Below, one piece after another: positions 23,869 through 32,442 of a DNA stretch of 43,492 nucleotides. Made by a program: the position numbers and the translations under genes. The stretch lies in the NCBI GenBank assembly GCA_043779265.1, contig JAYWEM010000065.1:1-43492 (forward strand). The letters run 5' to 3'. Source of the stretch: a bacterium (GTDB lineage: Bacteria; Eisenbacteria; RBG-16-71-46). Within the stretch, counting starts at the first letter, position 1. Each line of letters begins with the position of its first letter. Under the pieces are notes generated by a model. The model worked only from the letters and a program-made list of their open reading frames with translations, made no database searches and was not told the DNA's origin.

Positions 23869-24861
23869 ATGACCGTCGACGACACCATCCTCGAGGTCCA
23901 GAAGCCCGTCCGGCGTGAGCTCGAGAAGGTGCAAGAGAGCCTTCGCGGGCTCTTCCGCACACCCATTCCGATTCTCAATGAGGTCGGTGGGCACGTGCTG
24001 GCGACGCGAGGGAAGAAGTTCCGGCCGACCCTGCTGCTCCTGACGGCCCGGCTACGCGGCTTGCTCGACGACGACGCGATCGTCTGCGCGACCGTCGTGG
24101 AACTGGTGCACGCCGCAGCGCTCATCCATGACGATTCGGTGGATCGCAGCATGCTGCGGCGCGGCATGCCCACGGTCAATGGCCTGTGGACCGACGAGAT
24201 GGCGATCATCATGGGCGACTACATGTACGCCAAGGCCATGGCGCTGCTGGTCGAACACAAGCTGAATGCGGCGATGGGCATCCTGGCGCAGGTCGTCACC
24301 GACATGTCGTGCGGTCAGGCGCTCGAGTTCCAGCACGCCTTCGACCTCGATGTGACCGAGGAGCAGTACCAGCAGTTGATCCTCGGCAAGACCGGATCGC
24401 TGATCGCCGCGGCGACGGAGATCGGCGCGGGGCTGAACGGAGGGGCGCGCGAGCCGAAGCGGCGCGCCCAGTACCGTCGGTTCGGCGAGAGCATCGGAAT
24501 CGCGTTCCAGATCGTCGATGATCTTTTCGACTACCTCGGGGATCCCGCCGTCACCGGCAAGCCGGTGGGCTACGACCTCATCGAGGGCAAGGTGACGCTT
24601 CCGTTGATCGCCGCCCTGCGTGAGGCGACGGATGCCGACCGACGCAAGCTGCGCCGTCTCGCCGGACGCCGGCGTTTCACCCCGACGCAGTGGGAGGACC
24701 TCCGGGGCGCCATCGAGCGCGCGGGCGGGTTCACCTACGCGCGGCGGCGTGCGCGCACGCTTGCCGATGAGGCGAGCGCGATCCTCTCGCCCGAGCCCCG
24801 TGGTGCCGCCAAGCGTGCCCTCGCGGCGGCCATCGGCTACGCCATCAACCGCGATCACTAG
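23869..24861 (+). CDS. Long-chain trans-polyprenyl diphosphate synthase (IspB/HepT-like)
   Basis: GKKFRP, ELVHAAALIHDDSVD..LRRG (FARM with Ala at -5, indicating long chain), KTG, FQIVDDLFD, GK..G.DL.EGK.TLP. Confidence 0.94.
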   Translation: MTVDDTILEVQKPVRRELEKVQESLRGLFRTPIPILNEVGGHVLATRGKKFRPTLLLLTARLRGLLDDDAIVCATVVELVHAAALIHDDSVDRSMLRRGMPTVNGLWTDEMAIIMGDYMYAKAMALLVEHKLNAAMGILAQVVTDMSCGQALEFQHAFDLDVTEEQYQQLILGKTGSLIAAATEIGAGLNGGAREPKRRAQYRRFGESIGIAFQIVDDLFDYLGDPAVTGKPVGYDLIEGKVTLPLIAALREATDADRRKLRRLAGRRRFTPTQWEDLRGAIERAGGFTYARRRARTLADEASAILSPEPRGAAKRALAAAIGYAINRDH

Positions 24862-25258: not shown

Positions 25259-26981
25259 GATCCGCGCCGGTCTCGATCATGCGCTGCGCGCTGCTTCGGC
25301 CAGGGATGAGCAGATGGATTCCTCGCTCGAACTCGCCATCCCGCGCGATGCTGCCCACGGTGATTGGACCTGCAACATCGCGATGATCCTCGCGAAGCGT
25401 CTCGGGCGTCCGCCGCGTGCGCTCGCCGAGGCGATCGCCTCGGCTTACCCGCTCGATGGACCCATCGACCGGGTGGAGGTGGCGGGTCCCGGATTCCTCA
25501 ACTTCCGCTACCGCGAGTCGTTCGTCGCCGGGCTGCCCGAGCGGATCCTGGCCGAGTCCGATGGGTTCGGCGCGTCGCGGTCCGGGGCGGGCGAGCGAGT
25601 GCTCGTCGAGTATGTCAGCGCCAATCCCACGGGACCGATGAATGTGGTGAGTGCGCGGGCAGCCGCAGTCGGTTCGTCGCTCGTGCGCATCCTCGGCGCA
25701 GCCGGGTTCGAGGCCTCGAGCGAGTTCTACGTGAACGATGCGGGCAATCAGGTCGGGCTCCTCGGGGCCTCGGTGGCCGCGCGATTCGCCGAACGGGTCG
25801 GCGTGGATCGGCCTTTCCCGGCCGATGGCTACCACGGATCCTACCTCCACGATCTCGCCGCGGTGCTGCCCGTGGAGGAGGGACGCGCCGCGCTCGAGCG
25901 CGCGACCGGGGACGAGTGGTTCCGCGACCAGGCCCTCGAGCACATGCTCGCCTGGCAACAGCGCGATCTCGAGGCCTACGGCGTCACGTACGACCGCTGG
26001 TTCCGCGAGTCCGAGGTTCACGAGAGCGGGGCCGTCGAAGCGGCTGGCGCCGAACTCGAGAAGCGCGGCGCCTCGTATCGTGCCGAGAAGCCCGAGGGCG
26101 TGACCGAGGCGGCCGAGTCGCGTGTGCGCGAGGAGGAGGGCGCCGCCGGCGGGAGCGGTCTGGCGACCTGGCTTCGTGCCACGCAGCATGGCGACGACAT
26201 GGACCGTGTGCTGGTCCGCAGCGATGGCCGTCCGACCTACCTGCTCCCGGACATCGCCTATCACCGTGACAAGCGATCGCGCGGATTCCGCAGAGCGATC
26301 AATCTGTGGGGTCCCGACCATCACGCTTACATCCGGACGCTTCGCTCCGGACTGATGGCCCTGGGGATCGAGCCGGACTTCCTCGAGGTGCTCATCGTCC
26401 AGCAGGTGAATCTGCTGCGCGACGGGCTCGAGGTGAAGATGAGCAAGCGCGCGGGCGAGTTCGTCACGCTGCGTGAACTCGTGGATGAAGTGGGGCCGGA
26501 CTGCGCCAAGTTCTTCTTCTTGATGCGTTCGACGAGCGCTCACCTCGACTTCGACATGACGCTCGCTCTCCAGCAGAACGACCAGAACCCCGCCTACTAC
26601 GTCCAGTACGCGCACGCGCGCATCGCTTCCGTGTTGCGTGTCGCGGCCGAGCGGGGCCTGCTGCCCGAGCGCGGGGCCGTGTCCGATCTGACCGCGCCCG
26701 AGGAGATCGCCCTCGTGCGCAAGCTGGCGACATTCCCCGAAGTGGTCCGCGGCGCCGCCTTCGCTCGCGAGCCGCATCGGCTCCCCGCGTTCCTCACCGA
26801 GACCGCGGCTGCGTTCCATCGCTTCTACCATGGCTGTCGCGTGGTGAGTGAGGACGCCGCGCTCTCGCGTCATCGGCTGCGCGTCTGTGCAGCCACGCAG
26901 CAGGTTCTGCGCAATGGCCTCGCGCTCCTGGGTGTCTCGGCGCCCGAACGTCTGGAGCGTGCGGCGGAGACTTCCGCATGA
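25248..26981 (+). CDS. argS: Arginine--tRNA ligase (start could be 25227, 25245 or 25248)
   Basis: HGDW.CN.AM.LAK, AGPGFLNF, EYVSANPTGP, EFYVNDAG.Q, RSDGRPTY..DIAYH.DK, WGPDHH, KMSKRAG, NPAYYVQYAHAR, FHRFY. Confidence 0.96.
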   Translation: MWTEIRAGLDHALRAASARDEQMDSSLELAIPRDAAHGDWTCNIAMILAKRLGRPPRALAEAIASAYPLDGPIDRVEVAGPGFLNFRYRESFVAGLPERILAESDGFGASRSGAGERVLVEYVSANPTGPMNVVSARAAAVGSSLVRILGAAGFEASSEFYVNDAGNQVGLLGASVAARFAERVGVDRPFPADGYHGSYLHDLAAVLPVEEGRAALERATGDEWFRDQALEHMLAWQQRDLEAYGVTYDRWFRESEVHESGAVEAAGAELEKRGASYRAEKPEGVTEAAESRVREEEGAAGGSGLATWLRATQHGDDMDRVLVRSDGRPTYLLPDIAYHRDKRSRGFRRAINLWGPDHHAYIRTLRSGLMALGIEPDFLEVLIVQQVNLLRDGLEVKMSKRAGEFVTLRELVDEVGPDCAKFFFLMRSTSAHLDFDMTLALQQNDQNPAYYVQYAHARIASVLRVAAERGLLPERGAVSDLTAPEEIALVRKLATFPEVVRGAAFAREPHRLPAFLTETAAAFHRFYHGCRVVSEDAALSRHRLRVCAATQQVLRNGLALLGVSAPERLERAAETSA

Positions 26982-27913
26982 GCGGTCCCTCGCGCATCGT
27001 CGTCGTTGGCTCGGTCGCACTCGATACCATCCGCACGCCGTACGGGGAGGTGACCGATGCCCTCGGTGGTTCGGCGTCCTACTTCTCGTTCTCGGCCAGC
27101 CACTTCGCCCCGGTCAGCGTGGTCGCGGTCGTGGGAGACGACTTCCCGATCGAGCACCGGGCCCGATTCGAGGCACGGCACGTCGACCTCGCCGGGCTCC
27201 AGACGGCTCCTGGGCGCACGTTCCGCTGGCGAGGTGAGTACATGGCCGAGCTCGGGCATGCGCACACGCTCGAGACCCAGCTCAACGTGTTCGCCGAGTT
27301 CAGCCCCAAGCTCGATGTCTCGCATCGAGCGGCTCCGTTCGTGTTCCTGGCGAACATCGACCCGGATCTCCAGCTCCACGTGTTGAGCCAGATGCAGAAG
27401 CCGCGGATGTCGCTCTCGGACACGATGAACTACTGGATCGCCCGCAAGCCCGAGCGTGTGCTCGAGGTGCTGCGCCGAGTCGACGTGGCGCTCCTGAACG
27501 AGGAGGAGGCGAAGGCGCTTGCCGGGGAGACCCACCTGACCAAGGCGGCCGAGCGTCTGCTGGCGGAGGGTGCCAATGCGGTGATCATCAAGAAGGGCGA
27601 GCACGGCGCGCTTTACCACTCGCGCGAGGAGCGCTTCATCACGCCCGCCTATCCGGTGACAGCGCTGACCGATCCGACGGGGGCTGGCGATTCCTTCGCC
27701 GGCGGATTCATCGGCATGCTGGCTCGGACCAACCGATCGGATGGCGAAGCCCTGCGTCAGGCCATGGCGTGCGGCACGGCGATGGCTTCACTCGCCATCG
27801 AATCCTTCAGCCCGCAGCGCCTGATCGAGACTGGTAGTGACGAGATCACCGGTCGCGTCCGGTCGCTCCACCAGATGGTTCACTACGATCTCTTCCCACT
27901 GTTCGACCACTGA
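26978..27913 (+). CDS. PfkB-family carbohydrate/nucleoside kinase
   Basis: VGSVALDTI.TP, LGGSASY, LANIDP, DTMNYWI, LNEEEA, KKGEHGA, DPTGAGDSFAGG. Confidence 0.93.
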   Translation: MSGPSRIVVVGSVALDTIRTPYGEVTDALGGSASYFSFSASHFAPVSVVAVVGDDFPIEHRARFEARHVDLAGLQTAPGRTFRWRGEYMAELGHAHTLETQLNVFAEFSPKLDVSHRAAPFVFLANIDPDLQLHVLSQMQKPRMSLSDTMNYWIARKPERVLEVLRRVDVALLNEEEAKALAGETHLTKAAERLLAEGANAVIIKKGEHGALYHSREERFITPAYPVTALTDPTGAGDSFAGGFIGMLARTNRSDGEALRQAMACGTAMASLAIESFSPQRLIETGSDEITGRVRSLHQMVHYDLFPLFDH

Positions 27914-27989
27914 GACTGAGCTTGCTTCCAACGGGTGCCGCTATGCTAGAGTCCCCGCGGGCTTCGAGGGGGAAGGAGTCATCCGCGTC

Positions 27990-28730
27990 ATGACCGCACC
28001 AGTGATCACCCTCGCCTCCCGGGCCGAGGCCGCGATTCGTCGTCTCCGGGACATCGAGGGTGTGAGCGTTCTCAGCACGGGTGACACCATCCGTGAAGTT
28101 CATGTCGTGACCCGCTCGGACCGCGCCCCCAAACTGATCGTGCGCGATGTCCAGACGGTTCTCCGCACCGACCTCGGTGTCACCATCGACCATCGGGTCG
28201 TCTCGGTGGCCCAGGCAGGCCCCGACTCGGCGAAGCTGCCTCCGGAGCGATTCCCCATCGAGGACGTGTTCGCGACCGAGGAGCCGGTTCACGTGCCGCA
28301 CGAGCGGATCCGCTTCGAGAGCGTCAACCTGTTCGTCGCAGGCGCACGCACCCAGGCCCAGGTGGAACTCCGCTGGAAGGGCCTGCCCCGAATGGGCAGC
28401 GCAACCGGCTGGAGCACGCGCGACGAATCGCATCGGCTGGTGGCGCAGGCCGCTGCCGGGGCCGTGCAGGAGTTCCTCGCCGACCCCGTCGCGCTCAGCG
28501 TGCAGACGGTGGAGTTCGTCGACGTGGGGCGGCACCGTCTGGTGGTCGTCGCGCTGAGCATGCTCGTCCATCGACAGGAGCGGCTGCTGTCGGGAACGTG
28601 CCTCGTGACGCAGGACACACCTCAATCGGTCGTTCTCGCCACGCTGTCCGCGCTCAATCGAGTGGTGGGCGGCATGGCGATCAAGGAACCCACGGAATAC
28701 GTCCTGCGGCCGAGCGCCCTGGACGCCTGA
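27990..28730 (+). CDS. Hypothetical protein. C-terminal half resembles the LeuA (2-isopropylmalate synthase) allosteric/dimerisation domain.
   Basis: ATG 27990 after GAAGGAG. N-domain EVHVV..RAPK.IVRDVQT....IDHR.VSVAQ. C-domain with repeated beta-beta-beta-alpha-like units ending GTCLV..D...SVVLATLSALNR. Confidence 0.75.
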   Translation: MTAPVITLASRAEAAIRRLRDIEGVSVLSTGDTIREVHVVTRSDRAPKLIVRDVQTVLRTDLGVTIDHRVVSVAQAGPDSAKLPPERFPIEDVFATEEPVHVPHERIRFESVNLFVAGARTQAQVELRWKGLPRMGSATGWSTRDESHRLVAQAAAGAVQEFLADPVALSVQTVEFVDVGRHRLVVVALSMLVHRQERLLSGTCLVTQDTPQSVVLATLSALNRVVGGMAIKEPTEYVLRPSALDA

Positions 28731-28877
28731 TCGTTCGAGGGCCCGTCGGGGCCCGACCATTGCGGACCGGCATCGTCGGAAGGAGGCGAGCGGAGCGGAG
28801 CAGTCCTAAAGCGAAGCGATCCACGCCTGGGGGATCCGTCCCTCAGCATCCTCGTCGCAAGAAGGAGGTGGACGCTC

Positions 28878-28928
28878 ATGGAGCTGCTTCTCGATATGAT
28901 CGAGCTGTTCGGCAAGGCCGGCTGGTAA
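28878..28928 (+). CDS. Small ORF / micropeptide, 16 aa: MELLLDMIELFGKAGW
   Basis: AAGGAGGT at 28862-28869, 8 nt before ATG 28878, TAA at 28926-28928. Most codons end in G/C like the neighbouring genes. Sits in an otherwise empty 316-nt gap. Confidence 0.7.
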   Translation: MELLLDMIELFGKAGW

Positions 28929-29046
28929 GCCGGTGAGTCGTTGAAGCCACGATGATCACTCCCTTCGCGAAGCCGGTCCCACTTCTTTTCTCTGCAGCCC
29001 GCCGCGCGGGACTCGACCCGTTTCCGCGCGAGATGGATGTCCGACC

Positions 29047-30372
29047 TTGAGCGAAATCCAGAGTCGACGGGGCAAGGCAGCGTTCCGCTCGTATTTCGTG
29101 CTCCTGCTCGTGATCACGGCGGCTGCGCTCGCGCAGTTGGCCCCGGGCACGCCCGCGCCGGCACTCGCTCTGCTGCTCGCGGCTGGAGCACTGCTGGCCA
29201 TTGCGGAGGCCGTTCCGGTTCCCATGCCGAGTGGCGGCTACGTCAGCGCGGCGACCATGATCGAGTTGCCGCTCCTGCTGCTCGCCGGTCCGTTCTGGAC
29301 GTGCTGCGTCGTGCTGGCGGTCACCCTGCTCGTTCATGGGATCCTGAAGCGCCGGGCCCCGCTGCGTGTGGCTCACAATGCCGCGCTGTTCATGGTGATG
29401 ATCGTCTCCGCCTCGATGGTATTCGAATCCCTCGGCGGGACGCCCGGAGCTTTGCGCTTCCCGCGGGACGCGGGGGCGATGGTGGCGGCAGGTCTCACGT
29501 TCTTCGCCGTGAACTCGATCGGCGTCTCGCTCGCCATCGGACTGACGGCGGGCCCCAGCCCGTGGCGGATCTGGCAGCGTGAGTTCCAGCAGGGGATCCT
29601 GCATCACCTCTCGTTCGTGGCACTCGGCGGGTTGGTGGCCGTGATCGTCTCGGCGACCGGTCCGTGGGGACTGGCGCTCTGCGCGCTGCCGTTGCTCGTC
29701 TCGAGGCACTCGTTCCAACTCGACCTGGAGCTGCGAAGCGACCTCAAATCGTTCGTCCGTACGCTGACCGAGGTGCTCGAGGAGGTCGATCCCTATACGC
29801 GCCACCACTCGCATCGGGTCTCGGAGTACTCGGTGCGATTGGCCCGCGGGCTCAGGCGGTCGGAGGCGGAGGTCGAGGAGATCGAATACGCCGCGCTCGT
29901 GCACGACCTCGGCAAGATCGGCCCGGCCCACCAGCACATCCTCCAGAAGCCCGGATCGCTCTCGCACGAGGAGCAACGCACACTGCGCGCGCATCCTGCC
30001 GCGGGAGCCGAGATCGTCAGCAAGGTGAGGGCGTTGCGCCGCGTCTCGGAGATCGTTCGCGCCCACCATGAGCGCCCCGACGGACAGGGCTACCCCTACG
30101 GCCTGCGCTCCGAAGACGTGCCGCTCGGTGCGCGCATCCTGAACGTGGCCGATGCGTTCGACGCGATGACGTCCGACCGACCTTACCGCCGCGCTCTTCC
30201 GATGGACGCCGCCATTCGCGAACTCGAGCGTGGAGCGGGGACGCAGTTCGATGCTCAGGTGGTCGGCTGCCTACTCCGGCTGACGCGCGAGGACCGGTTC
30301 GCACTGATCCCGAGTCCGAGCAGCGAGGATCTCCAGTTGCTCCGGCTCCGCCTGCGCGTGGGAGGGGCGTGA
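29047..30372 (+). CDS. Membrane-integral HD-GYP domain phosphodiesterase (c-di-GMP or related cyclic dinucleotide)
   Basis: About 6-7 hydrophobic segments in the N-terminal half. DPYTRHHS.RV, HDLGK, ILQKPG.L, HHERPDGQGYPYGL, ARIL.VADAFDAMTSDRPYR, GTQFD. Confidence 0.93.
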   Translation: MSEIQSRRGKAAFRSYFVLLLVITAAALAQLAPGTPAPALALLLAAGALLAIAEAVPVPMPSGGYVSAATMIELPLLLLAGPFWTCCVVLAVTLLVHGILKRRAPLRVAHNAALFMVMIVSASMVFESLGGTPGALRFPRDAGAMVAAGLTFFAVNSIGVSLAIGLTAGPSPWRIWQREFQQGILHHLSFVALGGLVAVIVSATGPWGLALCALPLLVSRHSFQLDLELRSDLKSFVRTLTEVLEEVDPYTRHHSHRVSEYSVRLARGLRRSEAEVEEIEYAALVHDLGKIGPAHQHILQKPGSLSHEEQRTLRAHPAAGAEIVSKVRALRRVSEIVRAHHERPDGQGYPYGLRSEDVPLGARILNVADAFDAMTSDRPYRRALPMDAAIRELERGAGTQFDAQVVGCLLRLTREDRFALIPSPSSEDLQLLRLRLRVGGA

Positions 30373-31388
30373 TGCGCTATCGCGACGCGGGGGTCGATGT
30401 CTCGCGGTCGGATGCCATCAAGGACGACGTCATCCGCGCCATCCGCTCGACCTGGAACCCGACGGTGCGGCCAGTGGTCGGCGGTTTCGCCGGCATCATG
30501 GCCATGCCCGGGGGCGGATCCCTCGTGGCCGCGACCATGGACGGCGTGGGTACCAAGCTGCATCTCGCCAAGGAAGCCGGTCGGCTCGAGGATGCGGCAG
30601 CCGATCTCGTGTTCCACGGCGCCGATGATCTGCTCGTCCATGGCGCACGTCCGTTCGCGTTCCTGGACTACATCGCCCAGGCGCGGCTCGAACACGACAC
30701 CGTGGTCGCGATCGTGACGGGACTGTCGAGAGCATGCCGTGATGTGGGCGCCGTCCTGCTGGGTGGCGAGACGGCGGAGATGCCCGACACCTACCTCGAG
30801 GGAGTCGTCGATGTGGCCGGCTGCATGCTCGGTCATGTCGCCCCCGATGCGGTGCTCGATGGCTCGCGCGTCCGTCCCGGGGACGTCTTGTTGGGACTGG
30901 CTTCGGCCGGACCCCACACCAATGGGTACTCGTTGGCTCGCCGCGTGCTCAAGGTGACCGGGACGCCGCTCGCGGCGCCGCTCCCGGGTGGGGAGGGAGT
31001 CTCGGTCGGCGATGCCCTGTTGGCGCCGCACCAGTGGTACGGCCCCGCGCTCCTGGGGGCGATCGAGCTGGGTCAAGTGCGCGCGATGGCTCATGTGACC
31101 GGCGGTGGCATCGCCGGGAACCTCGTGCGCGTTCTGCCGGATCGCTGCCGCGCGAGTGTCCGGGCTTCGAGCTGGCCGAGGCCGGCGGTGATGCGGTGGT
31201 TGATCGAGCAGGGAGCCCTGCCCGAGGACGACGCGCGACAGGCGCTCAACCTCGGCATCGGCATGGTCGTGGTCACGGCCGCGTCCGACGCGGACGCCGT
31301 CGCGGCACAGGTGGAACGGGCCGGCATCCGCGCTTGGCGGGTCGGCGAGGTGAGCGAGGGGCCGAAGGGCGTGGACTGGGTCGATTGA
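30372..31388 (+). CDS. purM: Phosphoribosylformylglycinamidine cyclo-ligase (AIR synthetase)
   Basis: YRDAGVD, GGFAG, DGVGTKL, FLDYIA, LLGGETAEMP, ASAGPHTNGYSLAR, AHVTGGG..GN..R, LNLGIGM. Confidence 0.96.
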   Translation: MRYRDAGVDVSRSDAIKDDVIRAIRSTWNPTVRPVVGGFAGIMAMPGGGSLVAATMDGVGTKLHLAKEAGRLEDAAADLVFHGADDLLVHGARPFAFLDYIAQARLEHDTVVAIVTGLSRACRDVGAVLLGGETAEMPDTYLEGVVDVAGCMLGHVAPDAVLDGSRVRPGDVLLGLASAGPHTNGYSLARRVLKVTGTPLAAPLPGGEGVSVGDALLAPHQWYGPALLGAIELGQVRAMAHVTGGGIAGNLVRVLPDRCRASVRASSWPRPAVMRWLIEQGALPEDDARQALNLGIGMVVVTAASDADAVAAQVERAGIRAWRVGEVSEGPKGVDWVD

Positions 31389-31422: not shown

Positions 31423-32442
31423 ATGCACGGACCCATGGGACGCGAGCAGTCGATCGGCAGGCCCCCGACCGAGGAGGTGATCGGCGAGTCCTCCGCCTGG
31501 ATGTCGCTACTCGATCGTGTACCGGCGATCGCGACGAGTGGCCTTCCCGTCCTGCTGTTGGGCGAGACCGGAAGTGGCAAGGAAGTGGTGGCGAGGACGC
31601 TGCACCGCTGCAGCACGAGAAGGGCCCACCCCTTCGTCGCGCACAACTGCGGCGCCACGCCCGACAGTCTCATCGAGAGCGAACTGTTCGGCCATGCGCG
31701 AGGGGCATTCACCGGTGCGGTGAGCGATCGCGAGGGTCTGTTCGACGCGGCCGGCCGTGGCACGCTGTTCCTGGATGAGATCGGGGACGCGAGCCCGCTC
31801 CTGCAGATGAAGCTCCTGCGCGTGCTCCAGGAGGGCGAGGCGCGTCGGGTGGGGGACACGCGAGTGCGGACGGTGGACGTGCGGATCATCGCGGCGACCC
31901 ACCAACCACTCGAGCAGGGCGTGCGGACGGCGCGGTTCCGCGCCGATCTGTTCTTCCGCCTCGCCGCGGTGCGGCTCCCGATCCCCGCATTGCGCGAGCG
32001 TGGCCGTGATGTGCTGCTGCTAGCGCGGCACTTCCTGGCACTCGCCGCCGAGGAGGAGGGACGATCGGCCCCGTCGATCGAGCCGGGTCTCGCCGAGTGG
32101 ATGGGGCGCTATCCTTGGCCGGGCAACGTGCGCGAACTGGCCAACGCCTGTCGCTTCGCGATCCGAGTCGGCGGTGCGCGTGAGCAGGTCACGCGCGCCC
32201 ACTGGCCCGAGGTCCCATTCCTCGATGCCGTTGCGGAGGGACGTGGGCTCCATGCGGAGACGCGAGCACTCGAGGAACGCCGTTTGAAGGAGGCGCTGCA
32301 CCGGACGCATGGCAACAAGGCGGCCGCGGCGCGTGCGCTGGGTCTGTCGCGGCAGGGCCTGCTGAAGAAGCTGCGTCGTTACGGGCTCACCGAGGAGGAG
32401 CGCGAGCAGGCCACGCTTGACGGAGTTCCGGGCGCTGACTAG
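31423..32442 (+). CDS. Sigma54-dependent enhancer-binding activator with Fis-type HTH and no N-terminal sensor domain
   Basis: GETGSGKE, NCGA, ESELFGH..GAFTGA, LFLDEIGD, QMKLLRVLQ, RFRADLFFRL, WPGNVREL, GNKAAAARALGLSR. Only about 18 aa precede the AAA+ domain. Confidence 0.93.
   Translation: MHGPMGREQSIGRPPTEEVIGESSAWMSLLDRVPAIATSGLPVLLLGETGSGKEVVARTLHRCSTRRAHPFVAHNCGATPDSLIESELFGHARGAFTGAVSDREGLFDAAGRGTLFLDEIGDASPLLQMKLLRVLQEGEARRVGDTRVRTVDVRIIAATHQPLEQGVRTARFRADLFFRLAAVRLPIPALRERGRDVLLLARHFLALAAEEEGRSAPSIEPGLAEWMGRYPWPGNVRELANACRFAIRVGGAREQVTRAHWPEVPFLDAVAEGRGLHAETRALEERRLKEALHRTHGNKAAAARALGLSRQGLLKKLRRYGLTEEEREQATLDGVPGAD

Follow-up and report, generated by a model that had tools for sequence, protein, structure and literature searches.

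A conserved micro-peptide gene, its structured RNA leader and a MASE9-like HD-GYP protein in Eisenbacteria point to a peptide signal for c-di-GMP

Gene content of the locus

The window analysed here is positions 1 to 43,492 of contig JAYWEM010000065.1 (assembly GCA_043779265.1), 43,492 nucleotides (nt) from a bacterium of the Eisenbacteria. Three co-oriented open reading frames (ORFs) in it, which encode a 246-residue protein (P0001), a 16-residue peptide and a 441-residue membrane protein with an HD-GYP domain (P0002), lie between genes for a PfkB kinase and for PurM (Table 1). A sequence-only reading of the window had named these three genes, and all of them were found where it placed them; it overlooked the structured RNA leader that encloses the peptide gene, as well as the likeness of the membrane domain of P0002 to the sensor domain MASE9. 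The peptide gene, its leader and its MASE9-type neighbour recur together in distant bacteria, and the locus points to an undescribed peptide signal controlling cyclic di-GMP (c-di-GMP) in several bacterial phyla.

Table 1. Features of the locus and its flanks, numbered along the window
Feature	Position	Strand	Basis
Polyprenyl synthetase gene, three genes upstream, among housekeeping genes	23869-24861
PfkB kinase gene	26978-27913
Extended -10-like promoter element (TG-n-TAnnnT), 5' of the 246-residue gene, putative	27944-27952	+	position
P0001, 246 residues: N-domain (5-77) alpha-beta, like the C-terminal domain (CTD) of cation diffusion facilitators (CDF) and like BolA; linker; C-domain (105-227) of LeuA/CimA regulatory fold; candidate leader regulator	27990-28730	+	AlphaFold2 (AF2) model, structure matches
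Conserved structured RNA enclosing the peptide gene	28762-28980	+	folding, alignment
Outer helix, 5' arm	28764-28771	+	pairing
First AGCGNAGCG box	28789-28797	+	conservation
Second AGCGNAGCG box, nearly invariant, overlapping the anti-Shine-Dalgarno strand	28810-28818	+	conservation
Anti-Shine-Dalgarno strand, complementary to 28868-28875 at the 3' edge of the Shine-Dalgarno (SD) sequence	28816-28824	+	read from the sequence
SD sequence AAGGAGGTG of the peptide gene, predicted mostly paired	28862-28870	+	sequence, folding
16-residue peptide gene, MELLLDMIELFGKAGW: acidic amphipathic N-part, C-terminal core GKAGW	28878-28928	+	ORF reading, conservation
Outer helix, 3' arm, then a pyrimidine-rich stretch	28972-28979	+	pairing
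P0002 gene, 441 residues	29047-30372	+
Divergent MASE9-like membrane sensor domain of P0002, predicted S-component fold	29047-29757	+	Atlas, AF2 model, structure matches
HD-GYP phosphodiesterase domain of P0002, motifs intact	29761-30261	+	Pfam, motifs
purM	30369-31388
Sigma54 activator gene, directly after purM	31423-32442

A conserved micro-peptide gene

The sequence-only reading drew attention to a tiny ORF with a strong SD and proposed a scan of homologous loci for short SD-led ORFs ending in a small-residue/Trp motif; that scan found both a conserved ORF and the three-gene synteny. Homologues of P0001 occur in 113 of 151 genomes of the phylum, and all 30 of the closest loci carry, at the same place, an SD-led ORF of 12-19 codons ending in [GST][KR]A[GS]W. 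An HD-GYP gene follows in 29 of them, the remaining locus ending after 455 nt. Across 23 distinct 16-codon copies the three codon positions have column identities of 0.71/0.92/0.66, synonymous changes occur within the core, and three different stop codons are used. Because it is conserved both in close loci and in other phyla, with codon-position selection, the 16-codon ORF is, on comparative evidence, a real gene. It is the only SD-led short ORF with a double AGCGNAGCG box in this genome.

Forty more distant loci were chosen by hand from the list of P0001 homologues. The ORF lies directly downstream of the P0001 homologue in 17 and further down, before the HD-GYP gene, in 2; in one locus the contig stops within the ORF, and one has an HD-GYP gene with no ORF found. 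In the other 19 the P0001 gene stands directly before purM or another gene, with neither leader, peptide ORF nor HD-GYP gene, so that the earlier picture of a trio inserted between housekeeping genes holds only in part. Among distant loci of the Eisenbacteria group 21 retain some part of the module, and 19 of these have the peptide gene beside a MASE9-HD-GYP gene. Single precursors may repeat the core, three times at L032 and L038 and twice at L033. L051/L166 keeps regulator, leader and peptide with purM directly next and no MASE9 gene within 14 kb.

We further examined 80 named loci from Bacillota, Actinomycetota and Sumerlaeota, 11 of which have contig ends or runs of N inside the leader or ORF; the same gene order is present in all 69 readable loci (61 ORFs found by script and 8 by eye). 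Peptides of Bacillota and Actinomycetota are about 24 residues long (24-25), with a basic start, some 15 hydrophobic residues and then GGA-x-aromatic-[KR]-x, the three GGA residues being kept in 41, 40 and 40 of 41 24-residue peptides from other phyla. Only 14 of these 41 end in Trp, against 23 of 23 Eisenbacteria 16-mers, and the N-part differs as well, basic-hydrophobic there and acidic-amphipathic here.

A second set was anchored on the MASE9 model PF20972 instead of on P0001, and comprised the 60 best loci from 201 Bacillota and 201 Actinomycetota genomes, 54 of them with at least 470 nt of upstream sequence. A strict filter found family peptides at 31 of the 54, and reading by eye raised this to 43 (8 co-oriented and 4 divergent peptides among 20 further loci; three of the 54 were not read by eye). 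Tandem duplicate peptide genes are present at two of these loci. The opposite-strand control of the filter returned 4 of 54, all four being divergently encoded family peptides, and so provides no clean null.

Two observations concern unusual precursors and assemblies. About 230 nt upstream of a 773-residue MASE9-like gene, L254 has an SD-led ORF of 39 residues with two STTWS repeats, perhaps another precursor type. Assembly breaks inside the leader or peptide ORF are unusually frequent (L089, L122, L123, L127, L129, L132, L133, L137, L139, L146, L149, L036). Arrays or cassette switching were considered as their cause; paralogue searches in ten genomes found one copy in nine and two in one, and a second copy accounts for the break in one of three broken-locus genomes tested, so that multiple copies are at most a partial cause. 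An invertible or mobile element was rejected, since orientation is constant and the G-U pairs of the leader, described below, favour RNA.

The receptor candidate

The earlier reading described P0002 as an HD-GYP protein with a multi-transmembrane N-terminal half. P0002 matches HD_5 (E 7.7e-37), and its N-terminal half can now be assigned more closely. That half has no match to PF20972 at E<=0.1, nor in the genome search, and PF20972 is present in 5 of 52 close homologues; we call the domain MASE9-like because P0002 falls below the model. In the Atlas it lies near MASE9 clusters (features 0.91; structural TM-score 0.80-0.85 over about 220 residues), and a paralogue in the same genome, P0272, passes PF20972 at 28.3 bits. 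The AF2 model has a mean per-residue confidence (pLDDT) of 90.0 and a short intramembrane hairpin at residues 58-67. Searched against known structures, it is closest to the S-component RibU (Z 16.4, root-mean-square deviation [rmsd] 2.8, 159 residues aligned), and the top 15 matches are all S-components of energy-coupling factor (ECF) transporters (Z 9.5-16.4, 10-16% identity), whose six-helix fold the model shares. Foldseek agrees weakly on an S-component (best E 1.6e-3). By their titles, these S-components bind vitamins or metals. No ECF transporter genes were found at the locus.

The catalytic motifs of the HD-GYP domain are HD at residue 286 and HHERPDGQGYP at 340 (HHExh(D/N)GxGYP); the substrate motifs are KPG at 301 and RPYR at 378 (RxY[K/R]), with the acidic residue of the N-loop in EEVDPYT at 245, following the definitions in the text of 10.1101/2021.11.05.467447. 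The RxYR motif points to c-di-GMP as the substrate, which P0002 should, by its motifs, hydrolyse. MASE9 domains are present in 73 of the 201 Bacillota and 86 of the 201 Actinomycetota genomes sampled. Galperin and Chou, who define MASE9 in 10.1101/2021.11.05.467447, propose that it binds its ligand inside the membrane, without saying which ligand. A second, degenerate HD-GYP-like gene stands behind the MASE9-HD-GYP gene in L077, L081-L090 and other Coriobacteriia loci, recalling Streptomyces hdgA-hdgB.

A lipoprotein ending in the same motif

The other MASE9 gene of this genome (contig C175), which stands alone, starts 5 nt behind a gene for a 182-residue putative lipoprotein whose C-terminus reads HFS, seven residues, GKAGW: its last five residues are identical to the peptide core. 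A paralogue on contig C11 has a similar ending. Of the 151 genomes, 86 carry homologues, and in the 30 best loci all 31 lipoprotein ORFs end in [GSTA][KR][AS]GW, with a MASE9 gene directly downstream in 17 loci and a lipobox pattern in 12 of the 31 proteins (ATG starts only).

Where a genome has both genes, the two endings vary together. Peptide core and lipoprotein tail agree at the K/R position in 36 of 41 same-genome pairs, where permutation gives a mean of 27.9, and at position -5 in 31 of 41, where it gives 21.9; these permutation means ignore relatedness, as do the co-occurrence counts. These pairs come from 34 parsed genomes with both genes (38 listed), five lipoproteins without a parsable core having been dropped. 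Rare variants are common to peptide and lipoprotein within genomes (GKGGW, GKSGW, TKAGW, SKAGW, YRAGW). Because two unrelated genes share a terminal motif, vary together and both adjoin MASE9 genes, a common reader of the motif is the best explanation, and it is probable that the core binds the MASE9 domain. The proposal of the sequence-only reading that the peptide is a ligand or modulator of the transmembrane domain is thus well supported by genomics (synteny across phyla, the shared lipoprotein motif and co-variation) and by the predicted S-component fold.

In the HFS motif F and S are invariant and H is at least 90% conserved across 31 lipoprotein sequences. A lipoprotein profile matches HFS domains before SLH repeats in Bacillota surface proteins, where Pfam ZU5 overlaps in one of three tested; MAIN domains have this arrangement. 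The MAIN domain of B. subtilis cuts between F and S, according to the text of 10.64898/2026.05.12.724683, and the Discussion of that source states that no signalling is known for the C-terminal fragment; background on ZU5 is given in parts of PMC3482391. We consider it likely that the putative lipoprotein cleaves itself.

Receptor and lipoprotein also persist apart from the peptide. Five f7 genomes keep the MASE9-HD-GYP gene, a MASE9 histidine kinase gene and lipoprotein-MASE9 pairs, with no short ORF or box found at the HD-GYP gene, and P0001 is found in 0 of 32 f7 genomes. Regulator, leader and micro-peptide go together, and the receptor stays with the other source of the motif.

Three further observations touch these genes. 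In the five f7 genomes (L351-L355) the MASE9-like histidine kinase genes lie about 7.5 kb from MASE9-HD-GYP, a possible second output for the same ligand. The MASE9 genes beside lipoproteins (L167-L196) stand alone without an output domain (P0272; L345-L350), which leaves decoy, carrier or partner subunit as possible roles. By eye, sequences like the sigma54 consensus GG-N10-GC lie upstream of both KAGW lipoprotein genes (C11, upstream of 19102; C175, upstream of 13729).

The RNA leader and the 246-residue protein

Across loci the leader contains between one and three AGCGNAGCG boxes, a strand pairing over the SD, and two arms around the whole unit. The boxes are direct repeats some 16-28 nt apart, with varying spacing, and in most loci of the Eisenbacteria group the equivalent anti-SD helix begins 5-12 nt into or after the last box; in this window the pairing script picked another helix of 5 base pairs (bp) rather than the anti-SD strand of Table 1. 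The outer helix averages 12.2 bp in 108 loci and closes 45-130 nt before the HD-GYP start. Arms taken from one locus score 31.1 and 30.2, whereas arms swapped between loci reach 23.6 and 20.1 and shuffled ones 18.5. For the SD helix, which is weaker, the corresponding values in the same loci are 19.4 and 19.0, compared with 17.0, 15.7 and 14.5. Internal non-Watson-Crick pairs of the outer helix in 106 loci are G-U in 21 cases, A-C in 3 and other in 18, and because G-U outnumber A-C mismatches, an RNA of the sense strand is favoured. Compensatory columns are seen as well, in an alignment whose anchor had itself been picked for its pairing. For 26 leaders of Coriobacteriia type RNAalifold predicts 37 pairs, of which 10 show double changes; the predicted pairs include the outer helix, a UAGCGG-loop hairpin and an SD hairpin. 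The leader of the window has a folding z of -2.82. Rfam gave no match at gathering score for it or in 14 loci. In boxed leaders the SD is predicted to be 18-27% unpaired, in nine leaders without boxes 25-62%.

P0001 has no match in Pfam or NCBIfam. Its AF2 model (pLDDT 83.6) supports the earlier impression of a LeuA-type regulatory protein for residues 105-227 only, where the predicted C-domain resembles 3f6g (Z 9.5, rmsd 3.1, 109 aligned) and LeuA (E 2e-5). The N-domain has middling scores to the ZnT4 CTD (Z 8.2), the CzcD CTD (Z 8.0) and BolA3 (Z 7.9). P0001 itself does not match LeuA_dimer (PF08502), which 12 of 102 homologues match at E<=0.01. There are 2211 representative homologues at E<=0.001, and E36, H38, K48, R52, D53 and S72 are conserved.

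The presence of P0001 follows the RNA boxes. In Actinomycetota 9 of the 12 peptide leaders from genomes with the 246-residue family carry boxes, against 0 of 9 from genomes in which no family member was found, several of these latter genomes being small and possibly incomplete; two loci with short upstream sequence were dropped from this count. In that phylum the gene is frequently transcribed divergently from the leader or lies far from it. Because peptide-MASE9 pairs occur in these nine genomes, the 246-residue protein is, on genome content, dispensable for the peptide-receptor pair.

Tallies by genome include unpublished genomes, of which no locus was read and on which nothing but the tallies depends: G015 in the phylum tallies of P0001 and lipoprotein homologues; G534, G378, G508, G480 and G448 in that of Actinomycetota MASE9; and G534, G361, G408, G378 and G508 in that of boxes and the 246-residue family.

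Flanking and regulatory sequences

A -10-like element similar to that of Table 1 is seen by eye upstream of most of L001-L032. A strict sigma70 scan found no site, and no strict sigma54 pattern was found upstream of homologues of the 246-residue gene. In Bacillota an AGGAA...GTCGAA pair, which we take to resemble sigmaH-type promoters, lies upstream of P0001 homologues (L072, L078, L102, L114, L138, L144, L150) and also at L221, L233 and L235, including before MASE9 genes without a peptide. In Geosporobacter the cassette is preceded, at a distance of about 2.5 kb, by a raiA RNA and a c-di-GMP-I riboswitch (L144:1181-1718). The sigma54 activator behind purM consists of an AAA domain and a Fis helix-turn-helix only, without a sensory domain. 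By annotation of the neighbours, neither exporter nor protease gene is present at the locus.

Discussion

We regard it as reasonably probable, from comparative sequence and modelled folds, that the locus encodes a peptide-to-c-di-GMP signalling module in which the C-terminal core is the MASE9 ligand. The receiver would be the MASE9-like domain, in which the fold of an ECF S-component would be reused for sensing, fused to a c-di-GMP-hydrolysing HD-GYP domain. The signal would be the C-terminal core, short and with its end free (GKAGW here; GGA-x-aromatic-[KR]-x in Bacillota and Actinomycetota), carried on a precursor of 12-45 residues whose hydrophobic or amphipathic N-part serves as leader; whether a free core is released from this precursor is evenly poised. 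By occupying the S-component pocket the core would change phosphodiesterase activity, in either direction. In Eisenbacteria and relatives the same core would also come from the putative lipoprotein with its MAIN/ZU5-like domain, in which self-cleavage at HF|S may leave a C-terminal strand of 10-16 residues ending KAGW as a tethered agonist in trans. Synthesis of the peptide would be gated after transcription, its SD being held in a helix beside the AGCGNAGCG boxes, and the 246-residue protein may set peptide output by binding this leader, its LeuA-type domain responding to a small ligand. Binding of the leader by this protein falls a little short of an even bet in our judgement. Most tentatively, MASE9 domains at large may be widespread peptide receptors derived from ECF S-components that read a C-terminal pentapeptide both from an RNA-gated micro-peptide and from a self-cleaving MAIN/ZU5 lipoprotein strand exposed on envelope stress or force, a split form of tethered agonism, as with adhesion G-protein-coupled receptors (GPCRs), feeding c-di-GMP and two-component signalling; we hold this rather below an even likelihood.

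Several observations weigh against this interpretation. The 16-residue Eisenbacteria precursor has an acidic N-part and no Sec-type signal, and with no exporter or protease in the locus no route is apparent by which the core would reach a pocket that faces outward. P0002 falls below the PF20972 model. Thirteen of the 30 best lipoprotein loci lack an adjacent MASE9 gene; 12 of these were widened, and no such gene lies within 5-8 kb in any of them. Of 28 weaker homologues 20 end in the core, 2 in the core plus an extension and 6 without it. Direct searches with the lipoproteins against Pfam ZU5 and PDB sequences gave no match, a result that excludes no known fold, and shared descent could enter the permutation and co-occurrence counts. 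Forcing a box single-stranded barely frees the SD in silico, from 0.27 to 0.29 or 0.36 and from 0.18 to 0.22 or 0.25, with controls at 0.25 and 0.21; a simple switch, in which a covered box melts the SD helix, was thus only weakly reproduced in folding and was set aside. Finally, three f13 genomes in which no MASE9 domain was found still carry the 246-residue gene, with double boxes at chance level in two of five such genomes, and because of this P0001 probably has some role without the leader.

That persistence bears on the first alternative, in which the 246-residue protein binds or processes the peptide, or senses c-di-GMP or an amino acid coupled to HD-GYP output, its link to the leader reflecting shared ancestry only. 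A LeuA-type ligand-binding fold would suit such a role, as would a metal or catalytic site formed by the conserved residues, and the gene does outlive its leader. Against it stand the nine Actinomycetota genomes with peptide-MASE9 pairs and no family member found, all of them box-less, and the loss of P0001 together with the leader in f7, where receptors are kept. As the sequence-only reading stated it, a ligand-binding or processing partner, the idea is unsupported, peptide-MASE9 pairs occurring without the family and the family without MASE9, and we consider it unlikely in its wider form. These observations weakly suggest that the 246-residue protein is instead a trans-acting, ligand-gated regulator of peptide translation.

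A peptide that is never cut might remain in or on the membrane as a small subunit, its tail plugging or gating a MASE9 domain whose primary ligand may be a metabolite or metal. MgrB and SafA are small membrane subunits acting on PhoQ. The basic start and hydrophobic stretch of the 24-25-residue peptides in Bacillota and Actinomycetota, the locus without a protease gene and the vitamins or metals bound by S-components all suit this model. Yet cores stand in tandem within one precursor and recur on a soluble lipoprotein domain behind HFS, which leaves the terminal core alone in common, and the N-part switches from basic-hydrophobic to acidic-amphipathic between phyla; we judge the model distinctly unlikely, and prefer the core as ligand.

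The boxes might alternatively be DNA sites, with the 246-residue protein a transcription regulator or antiterminator of the peptide/HD-GYP unit and the outer arms an inverted repeat. Direct repeats at their observed distances, and a regulator often divergent from the unit in Actinomycetota, would be expected of such sites. The G-U excess in the outer helix fits sense-strand RNA instead, box spacing varies, and the top structure matches of the protein include no known DNA-binding fold, so that we hold DNA sites to be improbable and retain the RNA leader. Least credible, to the point of being very improbable, is a cis-acting leader peptide (an attenuator or upstream ORF) whose translation refolds the RNA to control the HD-GYP gene, the peptide itself being functionless: although the ORF lies inside a conserved structure whose outer helix closes before the HD-GYP start, and although every Eisenbacteria 16-mer ends in Trp, most 24-residue peptides of other phyla do not, the motif recurs on the lipoprotein and co-varies with the peptide, and such a leader is insufficient because four peptides are divergent and two tandem duplicated, copies without any leader among them.

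The module is real, widespread and apparently undescribed: no description of it was found in the open-access literature, the scope of our search. For an orphan sensor domain it offers a ligand that can be tested, a synthetic peptide of five residues, including for the HdgA family of Streptomyces, which has no known activating signal. If the interpretation is true, peptide communication would be tied directly to c-di-GMP turnover without a kinase, a transporter binding fold would have been reused as a peptide receptor, an RNA motif found across phyla would gain a candidate protein partner, and the question whether C-terminal fragments of bacterial MAIN domains signal would have a concrete answer.

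Comparison with known systems

The MASE9-HD-GYP proteins TM1467 of T. maritima and HdgA of S. venezuelae are like P0002 in joining a membrane sensor to an HD-GYP domain, with the same predicted fold. The main text of 10.1101/2021.11.05.467447 does not contain the word 'peptide' (0 times) and describes no ligand, RNA leader or regulator; S. venezuelae hdgA/hdgB mutants show no developmental phenotype, and missing activating signals are suspected, in passages of PMC6205966. The ECF S-components (RibU, BioY, FolT, ThiT, CbiM/NikM) have a fold in common with P0002 in all 15 top chains, from which P0002 differs in its low identity, in its fusion to a signalling output, in the lack of an ECF module at the locus and in its proposed ligand, the end of a peptide.

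In the peptide pheromone systems AgrD/AgrC, ComX/ComP, ComC/ComD and RRNPPA/SHP/Phr a small precursor with leader and C-terminal core is encoded beside its receptor, and cores are repeated and variable between strains. The present module is alike in precursor layout, receptor-adjacent gene and repeated, variable cores; it differs in its S-component-like receptor, which would drive c-di-GMP turnover (elsewhere GGDEF or kinase outputs), and in a structured leader gating translation. Neither AgrB, ComQ, ComAB nor a TPR receptor is present at the locus. Agr precursors have a ring-forming Cys or Ser, a charged C-tail and an adjacent AgrB, whereas this peptide has no Cys and no tail after the core, and its locus is flanked by PfkB and PurM. 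ComQXPA has a conserved prenylated Trp near the C-end with comQ and comP adjacent; Trp ends only a third or so of the Bacillota/Actinomycetota 24-mers (14/41), and there is no adjacent kinase. RRNPPA systems place a cytoplasmic TPR receptor beside the peptide gene, and neither neighbour of this peptide has a TPR fold. A Trp attenuator keeps one or more Trp codons in a cis leader; here Trp is not conserved across phyla and divergent copies exist.

MAIN, GAIN and ZU5 domains are like the lipoprotein in having an HFS motif before the last strand. Compared with the tethered agonist of adhesion GPCRs the polarity would be reversed, with an N-terminal lipid anchor, a free C-terminal strand carrying the conserved motif and a receptor in trans. 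The allosteric domain of LeuA/CimA has the fold of the P0001 C-domain at 15-19% identity; P0001 lacks the catalytic domain and has an extra BolA/CDF-CTD-like domain. TRAP, HutP and PyrR are ligand-gated RNA-binding regulators, and the logic proposed for P0001, a metabolite-sensing protein acting on a leader by putative RNA binding, is like theirs.

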